Source: a virus (taxonomy: Duplodnaviria; Heunggongvirae; Uroviricota; Caudoviricetes). From it: 64,000 bases of DNA. The notes under the pieces were generated by a model. That model saw only the letters and a list, made by a program, of their open reading frames with translations. It ran no database searches and was not told the origin of the DNA. This document shows, one piece after another, positions 35,311 through 48,285 of this stretch (within the stretch, counting starts at the first letter, position 1; each line of letters opens with the position of its first letter). A program made the position numbers and the translations under genes. Where the stretch lies: the IMG/VR virus record IMGVR_UViG_3300040781_000350. The stretch is one strand, 5' to 3'.

Positions 35311-35549
35311 AATATTATTTAATGCGGGGTAGGGCGGGATCTGTATAATCTGCGAATAGCGGGGGTCTTAGTAATCTGCGAGGGATCTGCTCCCGGTTTT
35401 TTGTTTGGCATGCAGATATAACCCTAGTTCCAAAACGGCTCAGATAGTAAAGCGTTCCAACGGTTAACCTTCTCAGACCGGGTTCCTCTGAGCACAAAAG
35501 TTTCTCTAGTTCCAACCCACCTCTCGCTAGACCACTTTGGTTCTCTCTG

Positions 35550-36403: not shown

Positions 36404-36426
36404 GTCGATATTATATCAAGGTTCCA

Positions 36427-36696
36427 TCACAGCATCGGATTGTGCGGAACGTCATTATCTTCTTCCTCACAAATCTCGTGATAGGCACATCCTCTTAGTA
36501 CGCTATTAGCTTTGTACCGAACTGTACCGGTGAATGCTTCTCGCTTTTCCTTCTTGAGTCCAGCTGCTCGAACGTATCGTTCAGCTTGCTCCCGGGTGTT
36601 AAATGTCGCAACTATCTCTTCTTGTTCTTCAGTCTTGAACTGACCTCCGATATGTGAAAGAAAAACGTGCTCTGTTATACCTATTAGCTTTACCAT
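36427..36696 (-). CDS. hypothetical protein (89 aa)
   Basis: ORF in the small-gene array. Promoter element at 36700-36719. Confidence 0.45.
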   Translation of the reverse strand: MVKLIGITEHVFLSHIGGQFKTEEQEEIVATFNTREQAERYVRAAGLKKEKREAFTGTVRYKANSVLRGCAYHEICEEEDNDVPHNPML

Positions 36697-36725
36697 GTAA
36701 TTATTATATCGTGGTTCCGTGAGTG

Positions 36726-37016
36726 CTAATAAACCGCTACCATACGGTGGCTGAACATTGCAGAGAGCTCTCTCAGATTGAGTGGCTTCTCAGCGATCGT
36801 CAAGAACGCATAACCTTCCAGCTCTTCCTGAACCTCTTCTAAATAAACCTCATCACCTTCCCAATCACCTGACTCATCATTGAACGTCACGCGCTCAAAC
36901 GTCATCAAATTGCTATTGCGATCGAGCGTCATGTCGATGTCTTCGTTCTCGCCTAGGTGCACAAACACCATCATATCGTTGCTGCGCATTGCTGGTAATT
37001 CATTTTTCATATTCAT
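36726..37016 (-). CDS. hypothetical protein (96 aa)
   Basis: ORF in the small-gene array. Start at MNMKNELP. The upstream residues in the ORF track (LEPSYNIV) are the promoter element read in frame. Confidence 0.45.
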   Translation of the reverse strand: MNMKNELPAMRSNDMMVFVHLGENEDIDMTLDRNSNLMTFERVTFNDESGDWEGDEVYLEEVQEELEGYAFLTIAEKPLNLRELSAMFSHRMVAVY

Positions 37017-37187
37017 AACAATATTATATGATGGTTCCAATACGGCTATCCGATCAGTCCGACTGCGTTTGCAATCATCACTGCTACAAGCACGACAATA
37101 CCGAACAGTACAACTTTTGCTATTGTTTTGAAGCTCCAACTATTATTTGGTCCAATCATTTTATTTCCCTTTGTTTTTGTTATTTGT

Positions 37188-37577
37188 TTATGCAGCAGTC
37201 TCTTCTACTAACTGCTCTCCATGAAAGCGTCGTGCCCACACCTCTTTGATATGCTCTTTCTGCTCTCTTGTAGATGAAAGGGATACGTACTGCAATCGTA
37301 GCAGGCGCTTGTAACCGCTAAGGTCTTCTACGATGTTGCCATCACCATCGTGCTGCTTTTCATGACGAACCAGACCTCGGCCCTTCTTCGAAACATACTC
37401 AGCGAGGAACTTCTCGTAACTGTTGTCGTATTTCTTCTCAATCAAGCCAGCTAGATACTTGTGATGGAATGCATTTTCCTCACCGGTAACAGTGCACTTG
37501 ACTTTGACCGTGCAGTTAAAAGCTTGCTTACCATCAGCAAACTCGTAGTTGTATAATTTTTTAGCTTTCTTTTCCAT
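37188..37577 (-). CDS. hypothetical protein (129 aa)
   Basis: ORF in the small-gene array. Start at MEKKAKK, 4 nt after the stop of the upstream micro-gene. Confidence 0.45.
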   Translation of the reverse strand: MEKKAKKLYNYEFADGKQAFNCTVKVKCTVTGEENAFHHKYLAGLIEKKYDNSYEKFLAEYVSKKGRGLVRHEKQHDGDGNIVEDLSGYKRLLRLQYVSLSSTREQKEHIKEVWARRFHGEQLVEETAA

Positions 37578-37581
37578 AATG

Positions 37582-37668
37582 TTAAACGTCAATTGCAAAG
37601 TACATCACCATCGCTGCATAGGCTGCAACTACTGTAATGACTGCTATGTGAATGATTAAATGTTTCAT
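37582..37668 (-). CDS. 28-aa hydrophobic micropeptide (putative)
   Basis: ORF in the small-gene array. Sequence MKHLIIHIAVITVVAAYAAMVMYFAIDV, a single transmembrane helix. Promoter element at 37671-37690. Confidence 0.35.
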   Translation of the reverse strand: MKHLIIHIAVITVVAAYAAMVMYFAIDV

Positions 37669-37670
37669 AC

Positions 37671-37690
37671 TGATATTATATCGAGGTTCC
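37671..37690 (-). promoter_or_regulatory. conserved early-type promoter-like element
   Basis: Copy of the conserved early-type promoter-like element, reading tgatattatatcgaggttcc. Its TATAAT hexamer also supplies the TAA stop of the upstream gene. Confidence 0.55.
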
Positions 37691-37849
37691 GAAAAGGTAC
37701 TCATCATATGCTGCCTCATCAGAAGCTTCATATTCTGCTTTATGTAGTGCAATTTCATAATCTGCTTCATCTCGCAGAAATTGCGCTGCTTCAGCTGCTT
37801 GCCATGTATCAATATATTGATCGCGATCGTGTTCTTCTAGATGTGCCAT
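37676..37849 (-). CDS. hypothetical acidic protein (57 aa, not in ORF track)
   Basis: ORF in the small-gene array. Hand-translated as MAHLEEHDRDQYIDTWQAAEAAQFLRDEADYEIALHKAEYEASDEAAYDEYLFGTSI. Its TAA stop lies inside the TATAAT of the next promoter element. Confidence 0.35.
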   Translation of the reverse strand: MAHLEEHDRDQYIDTWQAAEAAQFLRDEADYEIALHKAEYEASDEAAYDEYLFGTSI

Positions 37850-37870
37850 ACCAATATTATATCAGAGTTC

Positions 37871-38143
37871 CTAGAGGGAGTTACGTTTAATGCATCCTGC
37901 TTGGTACTGAAGACGATCTGTATCTTTCAACCAATTCGCAACGAATGTCTTGAGAGGGTACTCAGCATACAATCCATCTTTCCTTCCGCCGATGTGATGA
38001 AAGCCATAATGAGCATTCACATCAATACCTTCGCTGGTAAGAAAGTCAAGATGGGTTCCGAGATCCCATTCCGGATGAATCAGAGTGCTTTGAGCTACCG
38101 AAACTTTTGCTAAATCGAATGTCTGTATTTGCGTTTTTATCAT
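37871..38143 (-). CDS. hypothetical protein (90 aa)
   Basis: ORF in the small-gene array. Promoter element at 38144-38165. Confidence 0.45.
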   Translation of the reverse strand: MIKTQIQTFDLAKVSVAQSTLIHPEWDLGTHLDFLTSEGIDVNAHYGFHHIGGRKDGLYAEYPLKTFVANWLKDTDRLQYQAGCIKRNSL

Positions 38144-38165
38144 ACCAATATTATATCAGGGTTCC
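38144..38165 (-). promoter_or_regulatory. conserved early-type promoter-like element
   Basis: Example copy of the conserved promoter-like element found before nearly every minus-strand gene start in the window. On the plus strand it reads (acc)aatattatatcagggttcc. In minus-strand sense it is GGAACC-CT-GATATAAT-ATTGGT-ATG, an extended -10 (TGnTATAAT) ending 6 nt before the start codon. This copy reads ccaatattatatcagggttcc. Variants occur with 0-6 substitutions. Confidence 0.6.
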
Positions 38166-38259
38166 GAGATGTGATTAGCACCATACTAGCTGTTCAGCAT
38201 CAACATCTAGCTTACGAAGATACTCTTCACGTGCATATCGTTCCTGACGAGCCTTCACT

Positions 38260-38775
38260 TTACGATCGCGCTCTTCTTGAGCTAGTCGACGAGCTTCCTT
38301 CATCCTTAGCAACTTGCTCGTTACCAACAATGATCTCAGCTGCAAGTTCCTCATCGAGCGTCTTCAACCATGCTCGGAACTCCTCGCAATCTTCCTTTGA
38401 TGTCTTAACGACAGCCCATGCATCGTTAAAGTCAACACTCTTATCGAACTTTACGATATGACCAGGGCTGCAACCGCATGAACATCCAGCATTGCGTGAG
38501 TAATGAATACTCTTCACATCAGAAAGAATTTCCTTGATTGCTGCATTAACTGCACGATTGCACTTGCGAAGAACTTTGTTCCAAGTCTTGCACTTAAAGT
38601 CTAGATTATAAATCTTCTTTTCATTGAACCAATCATCTGCGATCGTCATCACACTTTCTTCCTCTTTAGGTGTCTCAGTGTAGATGACCGCTCGGGTGCT
38701 GTGTGAAGGAGCCCAACCATTGCGGCTCTTTGACATCATTTTGTTTCGAATTTCTGCTGTGGTGTTATTTTTCAT
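38260..38775 (-). CDS. hypothetical protein (171 aa)
   Basis: ORF in the small-gene array. Promoter element at 38778-38797. Confidence 0.45.
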   Translation of the reverse strand: MKNNTTAEIRNKMMSKSRNGWAPSHSTRAVIYTETPKEEESVMTIADDWFNEKKIYNLDFKCKTWNKVLRKCNRAVNAAIKEILSDVKSIHYSRNAGCSCGCSPGHIVKFDKSVDFNDAWAVVKTSKEDCEEFRAWLKTLDEELAAEIIVGNEQVAKDEGSSSTSSRRARS

Positions 38776-38777
38776 AC

Positions 38778-38797
38778 CAATATTATATCAGGGTTCC
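38778..38797 (-). promoter_or_regulatory. conserved early-type promoter-like element
   Basis: Copy of the conserved early-type promoter-like element, reading ccaatattatatcagggttcc. In this copy a TTGATC -35-like hexamer sits 18 nt upstream of the TATAAT. Confidence 0.6.
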
Positions 38798-38807
38798 AAT
38801 ACGGCGA

Positions 38808-39128
38808 TCAACCTGCGTCCCAACCATATGGCTTGCAAAGGAACGGCTTACCATCTACATCAACCAGATCACCTACTGATACGCTATACAGAGGACCATC
38901 ATCAGCTCGGAACTTTTCTTCGAAGCGAGCTTCTTCGCTGTCCATGTCCATAAAATCACGTGGCTTGTTTGTAGCTGTGAACACCCACTCAGCAGCCTTT
39001 TCCTGCTCGACCACTCCGTCTGGAAGATCATACTCAAATACTAAGTGGCGAGTTAGGTTATCGAGCTCCTCATCGGTTGCTCCAAATGCTTGGCGTGTGT
39101 CGGTTGGTCGGTATAATTTAATTTTCAT
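38808..39128 (-). CDS. hypothetical protein (106 aa)
   Basis: ORF in the small-gene array. Promoter element at 39131-39150. Confidence 0.45.
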   Translation of the reverse strand: MKIKLYRPTDTRQAFGATDEELDNLTRHLVFEYDLPDGVVEQEKAAEWVFTATNKPRDFMDMDSEEARFEEKFRADDGPLYSVSVGDLVDVDGKPFLCKPYGWDAG

Positions 39129-39130
39129 AC

Positions 39131-39150
39131 TGCGATTATATCAGGGTTCC
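39131..39150 (-). promoter_or_regulatory. conserved early-type promoter-like element
   Basis: Copy of the conserved early-type promoter-like element, reading tgcgattatatcagggttcc. The upstream flank CACATCTC is shared with the copy at 38144. Confidence 0.6.
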
Positions 39151-39159
39151 GAGATGTGG

Positions 39160-39339
39160 CTAGAGTCGAATCTTGATCATCTGTTCCAACCAAGCATGGA
39201 CCTCTTCAATAGTGTCAGCATCTTCTGCACCTTCAACATGATCCATAAACACATCCTCATACCATGTCTCAAAGCTTCCGCTCATCAACAGATTGTAAAC
39301 GCCTTTTGCAACTTCTTCTGTGGTGTGTGTATCTTTCAT
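39160..39339 (-). CDS. hypothetical protein (59 aa, not in ORF track)
   Basis: ORF in the small-gene array. Hand-translated as MKDTHTTEEVAKGVYNLLMSGSFETWYEDVFMDHVEGAEDADTIEEVHAWLEQMIKIRL. Promoter element at 39342-39361. Confidence 0.35.
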   Translation of the reverse strand: MKDTHTTEEVAKGVYNLLMSGSFETWYEDVFMDHVEGAEDADTIEEVHAWLEQMIKIRL

Positions 39340-39360
39340 ATTGATATTATATCGAGGTTC

Positions 39361-39690
39361 CTAGAAGTGATAGAGCGTTGAGCTCTTGTTGTCCTTATCG
39401 ATGCAATTCGTATGCCAATTGTGCATGTAAGCTGGGGTATACTTCTTGCGATGCTCATCGTATTTGTCTTTGCGGCAAATACGCACCTTACCGTAGAAAG
39501 TTCCTAGAGCGCCATACCCGCGATCCTTTTGCGTGACTTTTGTCTTGAACTGTTTGCGATTCTCTTTAAGCCAATCAGTAGCTTCCTTTCTACTCTCAAA
39601 GCCAAGATCGTACATGAGGTAGTTCGTATTGCGTCCAGTGATGCCTTCTGCATAGGCATTTGTATAAGTCATCCAAATAATATATTTCAT
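39361..39690 (-). CDS. hypothetical protein (109 aa)
   Basis: ORF in the small-gene array. Promoter element at 39694-39713. Confidence 0.45.
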   Translation of the reverse strand: MKYIIWMTYTNAYAEGITGRNTNYLMYDLGFESRKEATDWLKENRKQFKTKVTQKDRGYGALGTFYGKVRICRKDKYDEHRKKYTPAYMHNWHTNCIDKDNKSSTLYHF

Positions 39691-39719
39691 ACAATTATTA
39701 TATCAGGGTTCCGTGAGGG

Positions 39720-39974
39720 CTACACACCTGGCAGCTCGAACTTCACATACCAGTGTGATTGATTTGCGAGCGATGCTCCTCCTCGGAACGGCTTCCATTT
39801 ATCGCCGGTAGCAAGAATGATTGCTTCTGGGAAAGCTTTCCTTACTTTCTCCTCGAGCATCTCTGATGTGTACCCATTTCGGTAAAAGTAACCTTTGCGT
39901 ACTGTAAAGATGCCTTTGCTCTTGCTGACGTGGTTTCCGATCTTTTCTTCGACTTGACGTGATGTAATTTTCAT
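39720..39974 (-). CDS. hypothetical protein (84 aa), MKxIT N-terminus family
   Basis: ORF in the small-gene array. Starts MKITSRQVEEK. Promoter element at 39977-39996. Confidence 0.45.
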   Translation of the reverse strand: MKITSRQVEEKIGNHVSKSKGIFTVRKGYFYRNGYTSEMLEEKVRKAFPEAIILATGDKWKPFRGGASLANQSHWYVKFELPGV

Positions 39975-39999
39975 ATGGTTATTATATCGAGGTTCCATG

Positions 40000-40509
40000 C
40001 TAGATGTTGTGGATGATCTTACCTGCAATTTTGATCTTGCGAAGTGATGATATTTTGTAATCACGTTCTGGTATTTCCTTCTCGATGCCTACTGCTTGCT
40101 GAGTAGCTGTTGGTGCTGCTTTAGGCAAGAATGGCTTTAGTTCCGCTAGAGGAATCTCAACTCCAGTCTCCTTATCGATGTAATAAGTTTTGCCGTTCAG
40201 CTGTTGAGGCTTGACGCTCAAGTATTGCTCACCTTTATGATGAATGATGAAGCGATGTTCCTCATCACGAACACCCCAACGACGAGGCTTAGCTTTGAAA
40301 ATAGCTTCCTTCCCCTCACGTTCGAGCTGACGATTAACGCCTGCTTCGTAGTTAGTTCCGATCAAGCCGCCAACGAATGCAACCTTGATGACGCGTCCAA
40401 AGTATGGATTGTTCGTCTTGTTCATGCGAGGCTCGGTATGAGCTTCGAATGAGATTGGTGTAGTGCCATTATTGGCATTTTCGATGATGTGGTGTACGAT
40501 GTTTTTCAT
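40000..40509 (-). CDS. hypothetical protein (169 aa)
   Basis: ORF in the small-gene array. Promoter element at 40513-40532. Confidence 0.45.
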   Translation of the reverse strand: MKNIVHHIIENANNGTTPISFEAHTEPRMNKTNNPYFGRVIKVAFVGGLIGTNYEAGVNRQLEREGKEAIFKAKPRRWGVRDEEHRFIIHHKGEQYLSVKPQQLNGKTYYIDKETGVEIPLAELKPFLPKAAPTATQQAVGIEKEIPERDYKISSLRKIKIAGKIIHNI

Positions 40510-40530
40510 AATCAGATTATATCTAGGTTC

Positions 40531-40722
40531 CTAGACGTCCAGTCTGTATGCTGTAACTACTAGATCATCGATCTCACTCTCTTTCTGAGCAATTTGCTTC
40601 TCTAAATAAGCTAGTGCATCATCAGGTGCATCCTTATTCATCGCAAGTGTATGATAATATTCATGCAAGATGCTCAATTGTGCCTCAGCATGCTCCAATT
40701 TTTGTAGTGGTGTCTTTTCCAT
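40531..40722 (-). CDS. hypothetical coiled-coil protein (63 aa)
   Basis: ORF in the small-gene array. Start at MEKTPLQ. Promoter element at 40725-40744. Confidence 0.4.
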   Translation of the reverse strand: MEKTPLQKLEHAEAQLSILHEYYHTLAMNKDAPDDALAYLEKQIAQKESEIDDLVVTAYRLDV

Positions 40723-40833
40723 ACCAACATTATATCTAGGTTCCAAGACATGAAAGGACTCGAGCCACACCACATAACTCGAGTCCCGACCCCCTTGGGT
40801 CAACCACCTTTTGCCAACCACGGCACATGAAAA

Positions 40834-41049
40834 TTATTCTTCCGGTTCCTTAAAAATTTCGTCTTGCTCTCCTGGCAAAAGACCAGTCATAAGAAATTCT
40901 CGCTCAGTTGCATTGAGCATCGGAAAGGCTTCCTGAATCATCATGCCGTCTTTCCATTTTTTGTTGCACTCGAGAAACTCTTGCGAGCTAATATTGAGAT
41001 GCATCTCATTTGTTTTGCCTGTCAGTGGATTGGTTTTTGTGATCTTCAT
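40834..41049 (-). CDS. hypothetical protein (71 aa)
   Basis: ORF in the small-gene array. Promoter element at 41053-41072. Confidence 0.4.
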   Translation of the reverse strand: MKITKTNPLTGKTNEMHLNISSQEFLECNKKWKDGMMIQEAFPMLNATEREFLMTGLLPGEQDEIFKEPEE

Positions 41050-41061
41050 AATGTTATTATA

Positions 41062-41349
41062 TTACTGTTCCGTTTCAGCAAGACGCTCGTTATATTTTGC
41101 AAGAATATGATCTTCAACCCTCTTGTATGAACCCCAGCAACTTGATGGCACATGATTGTAGATGAATACAATGAGCTTTCTGAGCTCATCACTCTCTTGA
41201 GGACAATTATCATATCGTCCGTAAGCACCGAAGAGATCATTTGCAAGTACTGCATTGATAAACCCTCCTGGCTCATAACCATTCTCGATATAGTCCATCA
41301 TCGTCTGAGCAAACCGTTTCGGACACTTGTTGTAATCTATTTCAAACAT
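41062..41349 (-). CDS. hypothetical protein (95 aa)
   Basis: ORF in the small-gene array. Promoter element at 41352-41371. Confidence 0.45.
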   Translation of the reverse strand: MFEIDYNKCPKRFAQTMMDYIENGYEPGGFINAVLANDLFGAYGRYDNCPQESDELRKLIVFIYNHVPSSCWGSYKRVEDHILAKYNERLAETEQ

Positions 41350-41375
41350 ATATTATTTTATCAGGGTTCCGTCAC

Positions 41376-41612
41376 CTAAACGTTGTTCGGTCCAGTACCA
41401 ACTCGATCAGATACTTTATCGAGATAGTCATAAAGGAATTCAATTTGCGCTAATCGAGCGAGATCCATATTGTTATCGAGATTCGCTTCGCGTTCGAAAC
41501 TGTTGAGTTGTTCCTCGAGAGCTTCAAACATATATGTCATATGCATCTGACGCTCATCAGTTGACATTTGTTTGTACTTTGTAGTGTATTTAATTTTCTG
41601 TGCTTGATTCAT
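41376..41612 (-). CDS. hypothetical protein (78 aa)
   Basis: ORF in the small-gene array. Promoter element at 41615-41634. Confidence 0.45.
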   Translation of the reverse strand: MNQAQKIKYTTKYKQMSTDERQMHMTYMFEALEEQLNSFEREANLDNNMDLARLAQIEFLYDYLDKVSDRVGTGPNNV

Positions 41613-41638
41613 ACTACGATTATATCAGGGTTCCGAAA

Positions 41639-41917
41639 TTAGAACTCCTTCTTAAAGCTGATGCATGTGACTGTTTGGCCGCGCATCCATCGAGCGGAAC
41701 GATTGATCTCATGATCATATACCTCGAATGTATAAAGCTCGAATGCTTTGGTGAGCATGTCTTTGATCATGCGCTTTGCTGCATCATCGTAGTTACAATT
41801 CGTTTTGATGCGAACTGTTCCGTCTTTGCGTACATCTCGGAAATAATTTCCTGGTGTAACAGTGCGTGTTGACGCGATTAATACTCGAATGTCTCTAATG
41901 GTTGGTGCTGTAATCAT
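41639..41917 (-). CDS. hypothetical protein (92 aa)
   Basis: ORF in the small-gene array. Start at MITAPTIRD. Promoter element at 41918-41939. Confidence 0.45.
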   Translation of the reverse strand: MITAPTIRDIRVLIASTRTVTPGNYFRDVRKDGTVRIKTNCNYDDAAKRMIKDMLTKAFELYTFEVYDHEINRSARWMRGQTVTCISFKKEF

Positions 41918-42001
41918 ACTATTATTATAAGAAGGTTCCAAGAATGGAAAGCTGCCAGCTCTTTCGAACTGACAGCCCAAGTCGTTTCCGCCCTCCATTC
42001 A

Positions 42002-42514
42002 CTAACCGAAATGCGCTGTCAATACTTTGTTCATGCATACTCGAAGTTCCTTCAAGTCAGCAATCAGCGCATCTCGTGAGTAAAGTTCCAATACCTTCAC
42101 TACATCATGCTTGTACGAATCAAGCTTGCTTACTAGCGTAGGTTTGTCTTTGATAAAATCGTAGTAGTCACCATCAGCTTTGACTGTTCCGTCTCTCTCG
42201 TTGATAGCATACTCCATGTAATTACAGACCTCTTTGTCATAACCAAGTACTTCACAAACGGTGTAAATTCGCATGCGATGACTCAGATCGCAATCACCGG
42301 TAACAAGTTCCTTAGCAAGGTTGTAACCGGAACGTTTTGTTGGCCAAGGACCATCTTTTACATATTTAAATGCTCCTTCTTCAACTTCCAAATTGTTCCA
42401 GAACTTCCAATGATCGTATGGGTAAGTATTCTCCCATGCCCCATCGGAGAGCTGCCCGAGAATCTCATGTTCGAAAAGAGCTTTGAGCCGTTTTGGTAAT
42501 GTCAATATATTCAT
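42002..42514 (-). CDS. hypothetical protein (170 aa)
   Basis: ORF in the small-gene array. Here the promoter element (42548-42566) sits about 30 nt upstream, so this gene has a leader. Confidence 0.45.
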   Translation of the reverse strand: MNILTLPKRLKALFEHEILGQLSDGAWENTYPYDHWKFWNNLEVEEGAFKYVKDGPWPTKRSGYNLAKELVTGDCDLSHRMRIYTVCEVLGYDKEVCNYMEYAINERDGTVKADGDYYDFIKDKPTLVSKLDSYKHDVVKVLELYSRDALIADLKELRVCMNKVLTAHFG

Positions 42515-42579
42515 AATGTGTGCGGTTGTTATTGCTTAATTGCAACTATATTATAAAAGGGTTCCGTTCTGGCTAACCC

Positions 42580-42702
42580 CTAAATTGATGCAAGTAGCAC
42601 GATACCTAAACCGATTGCGAGGCCGATTAGCCAGCTACCTAGCAAGGCACCTATGCAAGTTAAAAAGGCGACAAATGCGAGAGCGTTTGGATTAATATTC
42701 AT
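42580..42702 (-). CDS. 40-aa hydrophobic micropeptide (putative, not in ORF track)
   Basis: ORF in the small-gene array. Hand-translated as MNINPNALAFVAFLTCIGALLGSWLIGLAIGLGIVLLASI, with one or two transmembrane helices. Confidence 0.3.
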   Translation of the reverse strand: MNINPNALAFVAFLTCIGALLGSWLIGLAIGLGIVLLASI

Positions 42703-42811
42703 AATGTGTTCCGTGTTCTAGATAATGTTTAATTGTTCCTGCTTCCTCTTCATCGATGCAGTGACTGATTAAAGGATCTATAATCATTTGTTCAATACAG
42801 GAACGTTCCTG

Positions 42812-42846
42812 TTCCAGTTCCGTGGCGGCGGCTATTACCCTTACTG
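42812..42846. repeat. perfect 11-bp GC-rich inverted repeat flanked by GGAAC/GTTCC repeat clusters
   Basis: GTGGCGGCGGC-tattacccttact-GCCGCCGCCAC. Upstream is ggaacgttcctgttccagttcc (42789-42811). Downstream is ctgttcctgttccactaaacgttccagttccagttcc (42857-42892). Confidence 0.7.
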
Positions 42847-42901
42847 CCGCCGCCACTTGTTCTATCTGTTCCTGTTCCACTAAACGTTCCAGTTCCAGTT
42901 C

Positions 42902-43240
42902 CTACACTCGTTGTGGATCGAAAATATGGAACACTGTCACTTGTGTGTTCCGCATAATATCACTCACATTATACTTCGGGTCATCTTTCAAGGAACTGAT
43001 GCCAAACCCTCGCAGGTATTGAGAGATTGCCAATGTGTGGCCAGCTGTAACAACTGCACTGACATTCAATCGTGATAGTTCCTCTACTACCTTCTCGAGG
43101 ATCGATAACGGAACAACCTTCTCGATCTTAATACGATACCGACCATCTTGATGACGATCATTATAATGAGTAACACAAGTCAAATCGACTCCATGTTTCT
43201 CAATTGCATTGCGAACTTCTTTATATGTGATGTTTTTCAT
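42902..43240 (-). CDS. hypothetical protein (112 aa), MKNIT N-terminus family
   Basis: ORF in the small-gene array. Start at MKNITYKEV. Promoter element at 43241-43262. Confidence 0.45.
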   Translation of the reverse strand: MKNITYKEVRNAIEKHGVDLTCVTHYNDRHQDGRYRIKIEKVVPLSILEKVVEELSRLNVSAVVTAGHTLAISQYLRGFGISSLKDDPKYNVSDIMRNTQVTVFHIFDPQRV

Positions 43241-43263
43241 ATCGATATTATAAAAGGGTTCCA

Positions 43264-43788
43264 TTACGCTGCAATCAGCTCTCTAACAATCAGCTTGCCG
43301 AGAGTTTCATGCTTCTTTCCGATCATGTACCGATCTCTGTTGATCTTGTTGAGCTGGAACCCTTTTGGTATGCGAGCTTTTTTCGCATAGATGACTCCTG
43401 TTTCAACATTCATGATAGCATATAAGAGCTTTTTACGACTGCGAGCAACAACATGTTCTGTAATATCTGTTTTGCCATTTGCAAGACGTGTAGGAGATGC
43501 TCCAATTTCTCTACAGATGCGCTTCCAACGATAGTCATGCCTGCAGCATTCACCATGACGATGATAAGCAAGTGCGTGAGCGATCTCATGCAGCATCGTA
43601 TCGAGAACCTCTTCCTCTTTACCAACACGGCACAATGTTTGATTGATTGCGAGAGTGCGATCGCGGTAGCGGCATTGACCGTATGTACGATAAGCACTCT
43701 TCTTTAGCAACCGCGGGCGCCATCCATGTTTGTCGAGGCCGTGCTGCTCAATTAACTTTCTGTACGTTGTTAGTGGTGTCATCATCAT
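43264..43788 (-). CDS. SprT-like zinc metallopeptidase domain protein (putative)
   Basis: ORF in the small-gene array. 174 aa. HEIAHALAYH contains the HExxH motif, with a C-x-H…C cluster downstream, in a SprT-like layout. Start at MMMTPL. Promoter element at 43791-43810. Confidence 0.4.
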   Translation of the reverse strand: MMMTPLTTYRKLIEQHGLDKHGWRPRLLKKSAYRTYGQCRYRDRTLAINQTLCRVGKEEEVLDTMLHEIAHALAYHRHGECCRHDYRWKRICREIGASPTRLANGKTDITEHVVARSRKKLLYAIMNVETGVIYAKKARIPKGFQLNKINRDRYMIGKKHETLGKLIVRELIAA

Positions 43789-44015
43789 ACTACGATTATA
43801 TCTGGGTTCCAAAAAGGCAAAACCATTTAAGATCATCGCAAATCTCTATAGAGGCGAGCCGCTAAGCTCGGGTTTTAACCCCTCAGTATCAGTAGGTCGA
43901 TGCAGTCACCTATCATCAGCTTTAATTTAAAGACGAGCTGGTTCGATTGCGTCTCCATCCGCGTTTAGGGTCTGTGATGGGTTCGACCTTGCGATAAATT
44001 ATTGTATCAGTGTTC

Positions 44016-44192
44016 CTATTCAACAACTGCTTCAATGCCATGATCAACTGCTTCACTGACCTTAACACCATTACGCATATGGTTAAGAGCAATCTGCTGC
44101 GCTTTGTTCATCTGTGTTAGTGTTAGCACAACAGCAAAGTCATTGCGTGCAACTTGTTCAATTGTCTGTAGGCTGGCGTCTCTAATTTTCAT
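44016..44192 (-). CDS. hypothetical protein (58 aa)
   Basis: ORF in the small-gene array. Start at MKIRDAS. Promoter element at 44195-44214. Confidence 0.4.
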   Translation of the reverse strand: MKIRDASLQTIEQVARNDFAVVLTLTQMNKAQQIALNHMRNGVKVSEAVDHGIEAVVE

Positions 44193-44261
44193 ACGGTTAT
44201 TATATTGTGGTTCCATGCACATATTTAATGTGAACAACCGATTAAATATGCATCCATAATA

Positions 44262-44519
44262 TTATCGATTAGTTGCGAAGCGAGGAACAAAGCAGTTCTC
44301 AACCACTCCAGTTCGGCGGTTCATGTTTGTGACAATACCACAAATGTCATGCATAAATTCAACTCGTGGAGCTTCATGTAAACGCTCCCAATTCATTCCC
44401 ATATCATCTGCATTGAGCAGATCCATGACAAGTGTCATGCGGTCAATTTTGATGCCCATCTCGGTGAATTCATCTTCAGCGCGATCAGCTACTTTGGTCA
44501 TTATTTCTAGTGGTCTCAT
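44262..44519 (-). CDS. hypothetical protein (85 aa)
   Basis: ORF in the small-gene array. Promoter element at 44522-44541. Confidence 0.45.
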   Translation of the reverse strand: MRPLEIMTKVADRAEDEFTEMGIKIDRMTLVMDLLNADDMGMNWERLHEAPRVEFMHDICGIVTNMNRRTGVVENCFVPRFATNR

Positions 44520-44540
44520 ACTCAGATTATAAGAAGGTTC

Positions 44541-45014
44541 CTACCTGTGCTTGACTGCTAATGTAACACTTGCATGATAGTTACAAGGCATGACCTGTAC
44601 GCTATGTACATTAACTGGCTCGGAAAGTTCCATCCATTGCTGTAATGCTGGAACTAAATCTTCATTTGGATCATCCCATGTACCTGTATTGATATCAAAG
44701 CTGATGTTCACGCTTCTAATTTCGCGATTAGGCTTAGGTAGTTCTATTTCCTTACCTTGTTCAAAGCGAAGACCATAGCATGATTGCGAAGCAAGAGCAA
44801 TTGCGATGTCAGCAACATGACCTTTAAATGTTCCAAGCTGCTTAGTAGTGCGACCTTCACAGTCACCTTCTGTTGTAACCTTCCATATACCTTCTGGAGG
44901 ACCGACAGTGTCTTGCATTTTGTTCCAGATATCACGCTGTCGTTCGACAGCACTATCTCGGCGTTTAAGTTCCTGAGCTAGCTGCTCAGATGTAAATTGT
45001 TTAAGGCTATCCAT
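44541..45014 (-). CDS. hypothetical protein (157 aa)
   Basis: ORF in the small-gene array. Operonic with the gene upstream (TAA-T-ATG junction). Confidence 0.45.
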   Translation of the reverse strand: MDSLKQFTSEQLAQELKRRDSAVERQRDIWNKMQDTVGPPEGIWKVTTEGDCEGRTTKQLGTFKGHVADIAIALASQSCYGLRFEQGKEIELPKPNREIRSVNISFDINTGTWDDPNEDLVPALQQWMELSEPVNVHSVQVMPCNYHASVTLAVKHR

Positions 45015-45641: not shown

Positions 45642-45678
45642 GCCTCTAGTATAGAGAGGTTCCAATCCAGCTCAGAAC

Positions 45679-45694
45679 GGAACAGTGATATAAT
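45679..45694 (+). promoter_or_regulatory. promoter-like element in plus-strand orientation (P1) at the edge of the noncoding region
   Basis: GGAACAGTGATATAAT read directly on the plus strand. This is the same element as the minus-strand family but inverted. No ORF follows it. Confidence 0.5.
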
Positions 45695-45790
45695 ATGTGT
45701 ACAGCCAGATCGTGTCGTGAGCGAAATGCAGAGCCCGAGGGGTTGGCGAGAACTCCCTTGAGATATGGACCTGCTCCATCTCGGAAAAAA

Positions 45791-45806
45791 GGAACTGTGA
45801 TATAAT
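45791..45806 (+). promoter_or_regulatory. promoter-like element in plus-strand orientation (P2)
   Basis: GGAACTGTGATATAAT on the plus strand, followed by about 340 nt of GC-rich ORF-free sequence. Confidence 0.5.
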
Positions 45807-45809
45807 TGA

Positions 45810-46150
45810 TGTGCTCCACCTACCTGCCTAACAAGGATTGCCGGGATGGAAGGAGCAGAGATCTAGAGCTAGAGAGCAAACTACTCACCCTAGAGCGGAA
45901 AAGACCGGATGGGTTGCTAATGAAGAGTTTATAGGCCCCCACGCCTAGGCGGATCCAAACGGTCCAGCTATGCTTCTCTATAGAAATCCAGCTAAAAATG
46001 CTGGTAATGCGCCAGGTGCATAGGGAGTTAGAAGATTCTAACTTCAGGGTCGCCCGTCCGGATTCTCGCCCGGGTGAATTTACGCCCGTTTTGCCGCTCT
46101 GTAACTCGTTGAGAGGGTATGAGTTTACAGCCGATCCTGGCACGTAGTTC
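45810..46150 (+). ncRNA. candidate structured noncoding RNA (GC-rich, ORF-free) downstream of plus-strand promoter P2
   Basis: No ORF of 60 aa or more on either strand apart from compositionally implausible Ser/Leu/Arg-rich ones. Many short hairpins (CCAGCtaaaaatGCTGG, TTAGAAgaTTCTAA, CCTAGG palindrome, three CGCCCG repeats). GC content is far above the local mean. Its identity is unknown. Confidence 0.35.
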
Positions 46151-46151
46151 T

Positions 46152-46167
46152 GGAACCATGATATACT
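46152..46167 (+). promoter_or_regulatory. promoter-like element in plus-strand orientation (P3, degenerate -10)
   Basis: GGAACCATGATATACT on the plus strand, followed by an ORF-free AT-rich then purine-rich region. Confidence 0.4.
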
Positions 46168-46385
46168 AGTGTTTTAATTTAACAGTGAGATAGCAGCCAT
46201 GTAATAGATACACATAATAATATACGTAGACGTGCATATGAAGCGCTATATATGAAGCGCTTAGGGCTCTCCGAGAGCCACGTAAGGATATATACGTGGG
46301 GTAATAATAAATGCCCGGGATAGCCAGGACGAATCTGCTATTGCAAGCGGGCTCAACTTGTGCGTATAGCTAGAAAGGAACACCT

Positions 46386-46490
46386 GCGCGGGAGATCGCG
46401 AGAGAAAGTGCGGGAGAGATAGCGCGCAGTGCGATAAGAGAGCGAGCGCGGGTGGGAGGGAGAAAATTTGAGCGGGAGACCTAACCAAAT
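46386..46490 (+). repeat. purine-rich degenerate repeats (GCGGGAGA motif about 5 times)
   Basis: gcgcgggagatcgcgagagaaagtgcgggagagatagcgcgcagtgcgataagagagcgagcgcgggtgggagggagaaaatttgagcgggagacc has a strongly GA-rich plus strand. Confidence 0.6.
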
Positions 46491-46735
46491 ACCCGCTTAG
46501 ATTCTATCATTTCCGTGCCCTCATATACCTCTCCTCACATAACCCTCTTGACTTTTCATACCTTGCTTAGCCTCTCCTCTAGGCTATTGCTCACATCAAC
46601 AACAACCCTGCATCCATCATTAGTAGATATTACATTCACACTTATATGTTCATCCTCTATCTCCACACCATGATTTTTCATCATGCTCTTTACCCTCTCT
46701 TTTATACCGCTTTTAAAATTATCATCTACCATTTT

Positions 46736-46810
46736 ATTACTCTTTCTATTAGTATTGTTATTGATGTTACTATTTCTAATATTACTCTTTCTATTGTTAT
46801 TAGTATTGTT
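46736..46810. repeat. iteron-like direct repeats in AT-rich DNA
   Basis: attactctttctattagtattgtt at 46736-46759 recurs as attactctttctattgttattagtattgtt at 46781-46810. A related ttactatttctaat lies between them. Confidence 0.55.
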
Positions 46811-46946
46811 GTTATTAATACCCTGCGGGTGGGCTCATTTCCTTCACTGGTGAGATATCGGGCTGTATACTAATGCCATTCCAGTTCCAAAAATACTTCC
46901 ACACATCTTTCTCTTTTCTACACCATATCAATACCATAATTATACT

Positions 46947-47156
46947 TCAGTTCCTTTTTGTATACACCATCCACACACCATCTCTTTTACTCAATGAAAC
47001 ACATTCAAACAACATCTTACCATTCACAATTTCATATGGTACGCCAGCTACAATAAGTATTGCACATACTTCATCCTCAGTCAAGTCACAAACATATTCC
47101 TTTTTACATGCTTGTTCACACATATTTAAAATGCTTTTAATATCATCAATCTTCAT
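46947..47156 (-). CDS. hypothetical protein (69 aa)
   Basis: First minus-strand gene after the 1.3 kb noncoding region. Confidence 0.4.
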   Translation of the reverse strand: MKIDDIKSILNMCEQACKKEYVCDLTEDEVCAILIVAGVPYEIVNGKMLFECVSLSKRDGVWMVYTKRN

Positions 47157-47160
47157 TATA

Positions 47161-47574
47161 TTACCCAGATAATCTTTTTGTTTTAATTAAACCATTTGTA
47201 TCTCTATAAACCATGAACCGGTGTGTTACAACAATACCAAATCTCACACTATTATACACTCTATATGATCCACACTTAGTCTGTGTGAAATCAAATTCAG
47301 CAATTGCATGCTTTGGTACAATAATTAGTCTCTTGTTATCATCTCTATAATGGTATTCATCTGTGTATTCCACCACATGCTCTGATTTTGGATTACATAA
47401 CCCCCAGTGACGCAAGTTACCTATGAATACATTTTGTGTTTGTATCCAGTGGTCTTGACCAATAATCTTAATCTTTACAGTCAGCTTGTGTACATCTTTA
47501 CGCTGAACTTCATAGAACCTGTGTTTAAAAAATTGTTTGATCTTATTCATCCACCGGAACATAATATGTTTCAA
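47161..47574 (-). CDS. hypothetical protein (up to 137 aa)
   Basis: Start is either 47574 (31-nt overlap with the upstream gene) or MNKIKQ at 47553. Confidence 0.45.
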   Translation of the reverse strand: MKHIMFRWMNKIKQFFKHRFYEVQRKDVHKLTVKIKIIGQDHWIQTQNVFIGNLRHWGLCNPKSEHVVEYTDEYHYRDDNKRLIIVPKHAIAEFDFTQTKCGSYRVYNSVRFGIVVTHRFMVYRDTNGLIKTKRLSG

Positions 47575-47860
47575 CTACTGTGCGGGTGCGCTGCTCTACC
47601 ACCTTGGCACCATCCAATATTTCGCACGGCATAACACAATCATACCAATCATTATCACCATCTGCATGTACCTGGTAAAAGCTCACGAACACATCACATA
47701 ACTTAGCAACCTTTGGTGTGATTGAATACCATCTATGATTATCTGTCTCACCATTAGTCACTGATTCAGTTTCAAACATCAGCATAGATGCTAGACCCTC
47801 ATCACTACACACTTCATTTTCTAATTCAAAATGTTTCTTTATCAGTTCTCTTATATTCAT
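47543..47860 (-). CDS. hypothetical protein (105 aa)
   Basis: Start at MNIRELIKK. Promoter element at 47862-47885. Confidence 0.45.
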   Translation of the reverse strand: MNIRELIKKHFELENEVCSDEGLASMLMFETESVTNGETDNHRWYSITPKVAKLCDVFVSFYQVHADGDNDWYDCVMPCEILDGAKVVEQRTRTVVETYYVPVDE

Positions 47861-48069
47861 AATTGTATTATACCTCTGTTCCTTTTTCCTCAATATGCTT
47901 CTTCACTATCCACAGATCATCACCTATTTGTCTTAACCATTAACTCTTATGTGCTTACTATTATTTTCCAGTATTTCTACCATGTATCTTCATTACTTCG
48001 CGGAAGCTCCTCTGTCTAATTCTCTTGTTCTACTATACTCTCTCATGGAACCCCTGGTGGGAACAGCTA

Positions 48070-48285
48070 TTATTCATCAACCCATAGCAAAATATCGATG
48101 ATACACATGATACACACATAAAACCAAATAATAATATATATCCAACCTTCTACTAAATTAATAGTAGGATCATCTGAGATGAAGTCAGGTTTTGAATAAC
48201 ATAACAATACCATTACAGCAAGTGTATAAAGAATATTAGTTTTCATAATTAACCTAACGTACAACTTAACCCGATAAGGAACCAT
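48070..48285 (-). CDS. small membrane protein (71 aa)
   Basis: Two transmembrane helices. Confidence 0.4.
   Translation of the reverse strand: MVPYRVKLYVRLIMKTNILYTLAVMVLLCYSKPDFISDDPTINLVEGWIYIIIWFYVCIMCIIDILLWVDE

Follow-up and report, generated by a model that had tools for sequence, protein, structure and literature searches.

A cluster of GGAAC boxes around a GC-rich hairpin in a T4-like phage: a possible promoter-dead stem-loop/promoter cassette

What is a block of short repeats, wrapped around a GC-rich hairpin, doing among the small early genes of a T4-like phage? The block occupies positions 42785-42904 of a 64,000-nucleotide (nt) stretch of the uncultured virus record IMGVR_UViG_3300040781_000350 (the window, meaning here the whole stretch that was analysed). 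It holds eight GGAACN hexamers, arranged around an 11-bp stem-loop, between the stop codon of one gene and the ATG of a small open reading frame (ORF). The minus strand carries almost all genes between 9.5 and 45.6 kb, so the cluster is to be read on that strand. Here, we propose that it is a rearranged, promoter-dead stem-loop/promoter cassette, resembling the promoter-early stem-loop (PeSL) elements of T4-type phages, whose hairpin would act on read-through RNA ahead of a 31-amino-acid (aa) ORF and a 40-aa membrane protein. We give this reading a probability of roughly 45%. In the following, the anatomy of the cluster is set beside the promoters of the same phage, and the competing readings are then weighed, among them the translation of the repeats as protein.

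The cluster and the phage promoter

The cluster is more than a chance accumulation. Nine copies of GGAAC or GTTCC fall within the 103 nt from 42800 to 42902, whereas any other 103-nt stretch of the window holds at most four, and the maximum in 200 first-order Markov simulations averaged 2.4, with 4 as the largest value. The density that an earlier, sequence-only reading had pointed out is thus real; other parts of its description need correction. It had closed the cluster at 42892, but the repeats run on to 42902, touching the stop codon of the upstream gene. It had also described a bidirectional array, but eight of the nine boxes lie on the minus strand in one orientation, and the single plus-strand copy is the other half of a palindrome, GGAACGTTCC (42800-42809), which occurs once in the window. 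The boxes form tandem hexamers, three and then two, followed by the hairpin and by three more; TTTAGT stands between the first set and the GGAACA pair, and the last hexamer of the final set is one half of the palindrome.

The hairpin is an exact inverted repeat of GTGGCGGCGGC (42822-42832) and GCCGCCGCCAC (42846-42856) with a 13-nt loop; the stem may also be written GUGGCGGCGGC/GCCGCCGCCAC. It is the strongest perfect hairpin in the window, with a predicted RNA energy of -25.3 kcal/mol in the minus sense and -25.9 kcal/mol in the plus sense (z about -5), and its arm motifs of the G3/C3 type, GGCGGCGGC and GCCGCCGCC, are found nowhere else in the 64 kb. The earlier description of a perfect 11-bp hairpin of atypical composition holds in all but one respect: the stem is not purely GC, as one of its 11 pairs is A:T and the other ten are G:C. 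The extended dyad of about 100 bp, which had been described as well, dissolves on inspection, because the flanks of the hairpin are direct repeats. One is a 20-mer with 95% identity between the two sides, 81 nt apart; the other is the 12-mer AT(A/T)GAACAA(G/A)TG, whose last three bases are GTG in one flank and ATG in the other. Apart from the hairpin, the only symmetric part is an outer 9-bp helix of GGAACGUUU (42890-42882) with GAACGUUCC (42808-42800). The predicted two-tier fold has an energy of -44.2 kcal/mol as RNA (z -5.6) and of -22.7 kcal/mol as DNA (z -5.1). Programmed frameshifting was considered for the hairpin and rejected, since no slippery heptamer can be read ahead of it.

The meaning of the boxes depends on the promoters of this phage. 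Indeed, GGAAC is the upstream half of an abundant promoter, as had been claimed: GGAACCNNNNTATAAT, allowing at most one mismatch, has 49 matches in the window vs 0.27 expected, nearly all on the minus strand (for example, from 36410 to 44541). Its consensus can be written GGAAC(C/A/T)-N4-TATAAT-N6-ATG; the box falls at about -22 to -17, and a -35 element is absent. Among 46 sites where a TAnnnT hexamer is followed by an ORF of 30 codons or more, the distance from the -10 hexamer to the ATG is 6 nt in 40; -10 positions 1, 2 and 6 are invariant and position 5 is A in 43; the sixth base of the box is C at 24 sites, A at 15, T at seven and G at none. As the ATG follows 6 nt past the -10 hexamer, transcripts should start at or next to it, and the approximately 50 promoters imply leaderless mRNAs. 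An ATG-first gene model fits across the window. Motifs of the Shine-Dalgarno type occur at five of 66 genes vs a background of 6.8%, which is no excess, and the genes without a GGAAC-type promoter have A-rich leaders and make no Shine-Dalgarno use either.

Two further habits of these promoters bear on the cluster. The junction TAGGAAC precedes 12 of 56 promoters vs about 5% expected in the window (for example, at 40531, 39361, 37871, 44541, 15434 and 11692), and at eight of these 12 the TAG closes an upstream ORF of at least 40 codons. Moreover, intact hairpin and U-run terminators lie just upstream of promoters at 40786-40756, at 54472-54443 and at about 41983-41956; in each of these three units a hairpin of -19.8 to -25.4 kcal/mol is followed by UUU(U)C and, 10-11 nt later, by the box. 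The terminator hairpin near 41.96 kb is kept in a 72%-identical relative, contig L136, where a G.U pair has been swapped between the arms, and further units of hairpin, U-run and promoter occur in other relatives, such as L150 and L151.

The cluster carries the register of such a cassette at both ends. Its first box is joined to a stop codon as at eight ordinary promoters. Its last box is followed by a 4-nt gap, a TnTAnT hexamer and a 6-nt gap to ATG 42787, which is the register of the 46 promoter-ATG pairs. The hairpin ends 12 nt before this last box, compared with 10-11 nt in the three intact cassettes, and its stability matches theirs. A simpler account that suits the register of both boxes is that the cluster consists of the remains of a stop-codon, promoter and leaderless-ATG cassette that was expanded around a stem-loop. 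As a promoter, it should be inactive. None of the boxes has a proper -10 at the right distance, as the earlier reading had seen, and the best remnant departs from the consensus at three invariant or near-invariant sites. The sixth base of its box is G, which none of the 46 promoters has; in its -10 hexamer, position 2 carries G where all 46 have A, and position 5 carries T where 43 of the 46 have A.

From these features we infer an origin, a loss of promoter function and a role of the hairpin at the RNA level, and the events may have run as follows. A normal cassette comprises an upstream stop, in many cases sharing its G with the box (TAGGAAC), a terminator hairpin in some cases, and then GGAAC(C/A/T)-N4-TATAAT-N6-ATG giving a leaderless mRNA. 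In the cluster, the box would have been multiplied to eight tandem or direct GGAACN copies, probably by slippage or by recombination between boxes, and the GC stem-loop would have been placed between the copies; the -10 hexamer would then have decayed to TGTATT. The 31-aa ORF and the 40-aa membrane protein would thereby have lost their own promoter, and would be read from transcripts begun at 43262-43247. On such read-through RNA, the stem-loop could attenuate or pause transcription; alternatively, as a hairpin for processing or for forming a 3' end, it could fix how much upstream message there is relative to downstream message. For the repeats, supplying homology for recombination may be the only function.

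Several points weigh against this account. The argument from register is no more than suggestive, since a 6-nt repeat would bring about one in six boxes into place by chance, and a hexamer with four of the six TATAAT bases is no rarity where DNA is AT-rich. Whereas a U-run follows the stem in each of the three intact terminators, none follows it here on the gene strand, and by the canonical rule termination is thus not expected. The repeats lie in an open frame of 69 codons, in frame with the upstream gene, for which a confident long helix is predicted and which one gene caller accepted. Lastly, no relative covering the site was recovered.

Table 1. Positions of the cluster elements and of the genes and promoters on either side, in window coordinates
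Feature	Coordinates	Strand	Remarks
Promoter of the 112-aa gene, GGAACCCTTTTATAAT	43262-43247	minus	Promoter motif match
Upstream orphan gene, 112 aa	42902-43240	minus	Predicted leaderless ATG 43240, TAG stop 42904-42902 (ORF list)
TAG stop of the 112-aa gene	42904-42902	minus	Supplies, with its G, base 1 of the first hexamer (TAGGAAC junction)
Tandem hexamers GGAACT-GGAACT-GGAACG	42885-42902	minus	With TT 42884-42883, left copy of the 20-nt direct repeat
Tandem hexamers GGAACA-GGAACA	42867-42878	minus	Sequence, direct repeats
GATAGAACAA after the second hexamer set	42866-42857	minus	Repeats ATTGAACAA, which precedes ATG 42787
Stem-loop GTGGCGGCGGC-AGTAAGGGTAATA-GCCGCCGCCAC	42856-42822		11-bp arms, 13-nt loop
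Tandem hexamers GGAACT-GGAACA-GGAACG	42804-42821	minus	With TT 42803-42802, right copy of the 20-nt direct repeat
Promoter-shaped remnant GGAACG-TTCC-TGTATT-GAACAA-ATG	42785-42809	minus	Exact promoter register
Predicted two-tier RNA/DNA structure	42800-42890	minus	Outer 9-bp helix encloses the GC hairpin, with large internal loops between
Small ORF, 31 aa, MIIDPLISHCIDEEEAGTIKHYLEHGTHYEY	42692-42787	minus	Codon score at the in-frame mean; ATG unpaired, A-rich context
Single-pass membrane protein, 40 aa, MNINPNALAFVAFLTCIGALLGSWLIGLAIGLGIVLLASI	42580-42702	minus	ORF list; downstream of the 31-aa ORF
Next ordinary promoter, after the 40-aa gene	42565-42550	minus	Promoter motif match

Coding potential and rival explanations

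The same letters can be read as protein. Frame 0 reads ELELERLVEQEQIEQVAAAVRVIAAATELEQERSCIEQ and then MIIDPL..., with no other stop as far back as the TAG of the upstream gene, whose frame it shares. The stretch could then be the N-terminal half of a 62-aa protein started at GTG 42880, or of a longer one (62-69 aa), that is, a helical orphan rich in Glu, Leu, Gln and Ala, in which the GGAAC repeats are GAA-CNG codon pairs (E-L, E-Q, E-R) and the hairpin is two Ala3 runs. The 69 open codons do read ELELER...ELEQER, the upstream part of the frame includes the peptide ELELERLVEQEQIEQVAAAVR, the ORF ends with an 11-nt overlap that couples it to the next gene, and GGAACGTTCC also lies within a genuine gene of a relative, where it encodes E-R-S. 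The JGI gene caller accepted the 62-aa ORF in one of four assemblies; the gene calls of the other three omit it. AlphaFold2, run on the single sequence, predicts one long helix over residues 2-48 with a predicted local distance difference test (pLDDT) score above 90 (92-97 over residues 1-40); a high helix pLDDT is, however, expected of any string rich in Glu, Ala and Leu, and thus does not discriminate.

The codons themselves speak against translation. When scored with codon frequencies from 71 long ORFs of the window, the 38 codons at 42788-42901 reach 0.26, which places them in the bottom 1% of real in-frame windows (mean 17.8, standard deviation 6.8). Ala and Leu are encoded almost entirely by rare codons: GCC or GCG stands for five of the six Ala residues (together 12% of the Ala usage of the phage; p = 1.3e-4), and CTG, with 9% usage, for three of the four Leu residues (p = 2.7e-3). 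This atypical score, together with the rare Ala and Leu codons, indicates that the hairpin and the GGAAC repeats were shaped at the nucleic-acid level and not by codon choice. In addition, the variable base of the hexamer falls on the second codon position, meaning that each difference between repeats alters an amino acid. The sole start codon in frame upstream of ATG 42787 is GTG 42880, a start that is unusual here and is paired inside the predicted structure, in a context that is not A-rich, whereas ATG 42787 is unpaired in the fold and has an A-rich context; the product from this ATG begins MIIDPLISH. No homologue of the 62- or 69-aa product was found among 5.8 billion proteins, nor among 1.84 billion representatives searched by full HMMER; beyond self-matches, the protein searches gave one weak low-complexity match (E = 4.6e-4). 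The 31 codons from ATG 42787 score 13.9, a value equal to the in-frame mean, and this short ORF accounts equally well for the overlap with the next gene.

Two ways of rescuing translation of the repeats were considered and rejected. Read-through of the in-frame TAG might be allowed by a tRNA, but none, including a suppressor tRNA for TAG, was found, and TAG is a common, genuine stop in the window. The alternative frame GTGTGTFSGTGT..., in which the hexamer differences are all synonymous, lacks a start codon, and its open part extends back only to about 42960. We thus consider a protein-coding repeat doubtful. The sequence-only reading had distrusted the 62-aa ORF (42692-42880), had accepted its last 31 codons as plausible and had held that translation of the region as a real repetitive protein would speak against its view; our results agree with it on the first two points, and for the ORF of 62-69 aa neither codon usage, nor the start codon, nor the search for homologues points to such a protein. 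The 31-aa ORF at ATG 42787 is a probable real small gene. The better gene model, judged from the codons and the context of the start, would have translation begin at 42787 (31 aa), coupled by the 11-nt overlap to the 40-aa membrane protein, and the 114 nt between the TAG stop and this ATG are most likely non-coding.

A non-coding array of boxes may also be there to bind protein. The eight GGAACN boxes would in that case be an operator, decoy or sink for a putative protein that reads the GGAAC(C) half of the promoter, either tuning the expression of the downstream membrane protein or titrating the factor. An operator or sink had been the first suggestion of the sequence-only reading. It is consistent with this idea that the density of boxes is unique in 64 kb, and that boxes without a -10 cannot be ordinary promoters. 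A related stretch, L143:2300-2660 (IMGVR_UViG_3300028128_000005), about 350 nt long, apparently non-coding and located between a small-gene block and structural genes, has GGAAC, GTTCC and TTCCGAAC in dense succession on either strand, and it also contains the palindrome GGAACGTTCC. However, no such factor was identified, and the boxes are not those that it would be expected to prefer: none of the eight has C, the preferred sixth base, which is found at 24 of 46 promoters, and the box nearest the ATG has G, never seen at promoters. The 6-bp period would also turn each site almost to the far side of the helix from the one before. No relative examined has the array, and in L152 other genes surround the homologue of the downstream 170-aa gene. 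An enrichment of GGAACGTTCC in relatives was considered and rejected, as it comes down to one coding and one non-coding case. On balance, a binding array is unlikely. A composite version, in which the eight half-sites and the stem-loop would together be a purpose-built device, that is, a decoy or operator for the putative GGAAC factor of the approximately 50 leaderless promoters combined with an RNA hairpin gating the 31-aa/40-aa pair, has only a slim chance of being correct. If it were true, such a regulatory device would offer a handle on the protein behind a promoter architecture of box and TATAAT without a -35.

The hairpin may instead be the functional part and the repeats incidental. It could end plus-strand transcripts as an intrinsic terminator and so keep antisense transcription out of the early-gene block: the stem is followed on that strand by UUGUUCUAU, and TTGTTCTA, with five T in eight, satisfies the tail rule of our consensus terminator scan, compared with a minus-strand tail of GGAACUGG, also given as GGAACTGG, which has no U-run. 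The scan nevertheless calls the hairpin at 42822-42856 on neither strand, and the 13-nt loop is long for a terminator. Within the window, no plus-strand promoter of the phage type stands upstream of it, to the left; the four plus-strand promoter matches of the window (45679-48278) point away, and nearby sigma-70-like matches are at the level of chance (16 vs 15.5 expected). We regard this role as very improbable. Least credible to us is a site that works as DNA, whether a replication origin, a packaging signal, a site for site-specific recombination or a mobile GC palindrome inserted with target duplication; packaging or recombination had been suggested in the sequence-only reading. An inverted repeat within direct repeats does resemble the layout of iterons and arm sites, direct repeats of 20 and 12 nt flank the hairpin, and the GC stem is foreign in composition (51% GC in the cluster region vs about 43% locally). 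But no second copy of the hairpin or its core was found in the window or in relatives; the hairpin pattern had 11 matches in IMG/VR, all in unrelated contigs of 59-70% GC, and its core had none in 185,579 GTDB genomes. The Pfam scan found no recombinase or terminase gene adjoining the cluster and no Pfam family in the immediate flanking genes, the cumulative GC skew has no inflection there, and a 13-nt spacer is unfit for the core of a tyrosine or serine recombinase. The stop-codon junction, the register at the ATG and the atypical codons all count in favour of a broken cassette, which remains our preferred reading.

Genomic setting and relatives

The window encodes a T4-type portal (Pfam Portal_T4, E = 4e-97), marking a T4-like phage; its identity to the portals of the best cultured relatives is only 31-33%. 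Between 36 and 45 kb the genome is a dense array of small ORFs, each with its own promoter. Both ORFs that immediately flank the cluster are orphans without homologues; the 112-aa upstream gene found only itself among 5.8 billion proteins and has no Pfam family, and no IMG/VR relatives were found for it or for the 69-aa ORF. Four metagenome assemblies (contigs up to 201-221 kb) hold the same phage and are 100% identical across the site, so they offer no variation to exploit. Rfam 15 gave no match in the window at gathering thresholds, the best sub-threshold hit being CcsR1 at 25 bits against a gathering threshold of 65.

The sequence-only reading had proposed looking for the same arrangement in related phages; the array is absent from every relative examined, none of which covers the site. 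The nearest route is through the downstream 170-aa gene, whose 72%-identical homologue lies on the 744-nt contig L136, listed as ZHEN15-1...scaffold_299318 in ENA ERZ23498987. This contig, the only close relative, keeps the C-terminus of the 40-aa membrane protein and ends inside its gene, 150 nt short of the cluster site, and more distant homologues of the 170-aa gene lack one or the other of two features, the promoter type or the neighbouring genes. In metagenomes, the hexamer-array pattern gave at least 120 single chance matches; among the matches listed, which do not include contigs of the phage itself, none has the phage promoter motif or a GC hairpin, and they are thus not relatives. INPHARED phage genomes yielded no close relative by megablast and only an 80-nt match, in another gene, by blastn. 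L152:4526-5146 (minus strand) belongs to a 209-kb related contig in which the 170-aa homologue lies 825 nt, or one 190-aa ORF, away from an ORF with …YILYKIVNKVNNKFYIGVHKT…, whose start resembles, by eye, that of a GIY-YIG homing endonuclease. In the window itself, about 80 nt of a 157-aa gene (44541-45014), at 44818-44899, match hypothetical genes of Bacillus phages such as Bc431v3, Deep Blue and Bcp1, and also of Xanthomonas phage Xoo-sp15, with 76-83% DNA identity, which is unusually high for otherwise unrelated phages.

The promoter has a wider distribution than the cluster. The same architecture occurs in the relatives L136, L143, L145, L147, L150, L151 and L152, and the same promoter type in several IMG/VR and ENA contigs; one of these has a portal 65% identical to that of the present phage, which suggests a feature of the clade. 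We found no description in the literature of a promoter type made of a GGAAC box and TATAAT without a -35. Two other stretches of the window are of interest in this respect. At 45660-46900, where transcription diverges, an ORF-free and GC-richer stretch carries three plus-strand promoter copies (45679, 45791 and 46152) with no ORF after them and has no tRNA or Rfam match; it may encode phage non-coding RNAs. At 35315-35545 on the minus strand, an ORF-poor stretch has GGAAC about every 27 nt (35513, 35486, 35458 and 35431), followed by CGCAGATTA repeats, and no Rfam match. An uncultured T4-like clade that appears to rely on approximately 50 such promoters, with leaderless mRNAs implied and without Shine-Dalgarno signals, holds more interest than the cluster itself. 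The cluster, as a single-copy oddity of an uncultured phage, matters little on its own and is a curiosity, not a new kind of element. Its value may lie in marking how cassettes break: the box is multiplied, the stem-loop kept and the -10 lost, and under the cassette reading two small genes became dependent on an upstream promoter.

Comparison with known elements

Among known systems, the operator arrays of plasmids, iteron or heptad, such as R1 parC or the omega-repressor heptads of pSM19035, consist of tandem short direct repeats that flank a central element near a promoter. The likeness to our cluster is purely formal, as the latter has a 6-bp period, lies in a lytic T4-like genome and has no cognate binding protein, partition gene or replication gene nearby. 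An intrinsic (Rho-independent) terminator is comparable in that a stable GC-rich hairpin stands directly 3' of a gene and has an energy equal to that of the hairpin and U-run terminators of this phage. With no U-tract on the gene strand and a 13-nt loop, however, it does not qualify as a canonical one on that strand.

The closest parallel is offered by the PeSLs, intergenic cassettes of about 100 bp in the hyperplastic regions of T4-type phages (Arbiol et al. 2010, PMC2839356; Comeau et al. 2014, PMC4122927). A PeSL consists of a stable stem-loop, often with poly-G/poly-C, which attenuates upstream transcription, followed by a strong early promoter; PeSLs preferentially flank orphan genes and recombine together, giving insertions and deletions and chimeric cassettes, and their terminator and promoter activities, as well as mini-circles, have been shown experimentally (PMC2839356, PMC4122927). 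Our cluster is likewise intergenic, about 100 bp long and situated in a small orphan early-gene block of a T4-like phage. Its order is the same, with an upstream stop, a stem-loop with G/C runs, promoter elements and a start codon. It is flanked by orphans, and it has internal homology that could mediate recombination. Intact units of hairpin and promoter are present elsewhere in this phage and its relatives.

There are differences as well. The promoter of this phage is a GGAAC box, a 4-nt gap, TATAAT and a leaderless ATG, without a -35, an AT-rich UP region or a Shine-Dalgarno sequence. In the cluster the -10 is defective, the box is present eight-fold on both sides of the stem-loop and the stem has no U-run; moreover, the cluster is known here from its sequence, whereas PeSL function is experimental. 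Measured against the definition of a PeSL, the orphan, hyperplastic location and the stable G/C-run stem-loop upstream of a promoter part are present. In place of the strong early promoter after the stem-loop there is only the degenerate GGAACG-N4-TGTATT. As for repeated cassettes, the promoter part exists in about 50 copies and there are three other units of hairpin and promoter, whose hairpins share no sequence. Considering that a strong promoter is lacking and that the promoter is of a different type, the cluster would work like, or descend from, a cassette of the PeSL type, without being a member of that family. Recombination and decay, to which the early-gene cassettes of T4-type phages are known to be prone, offer the best explanation for it.

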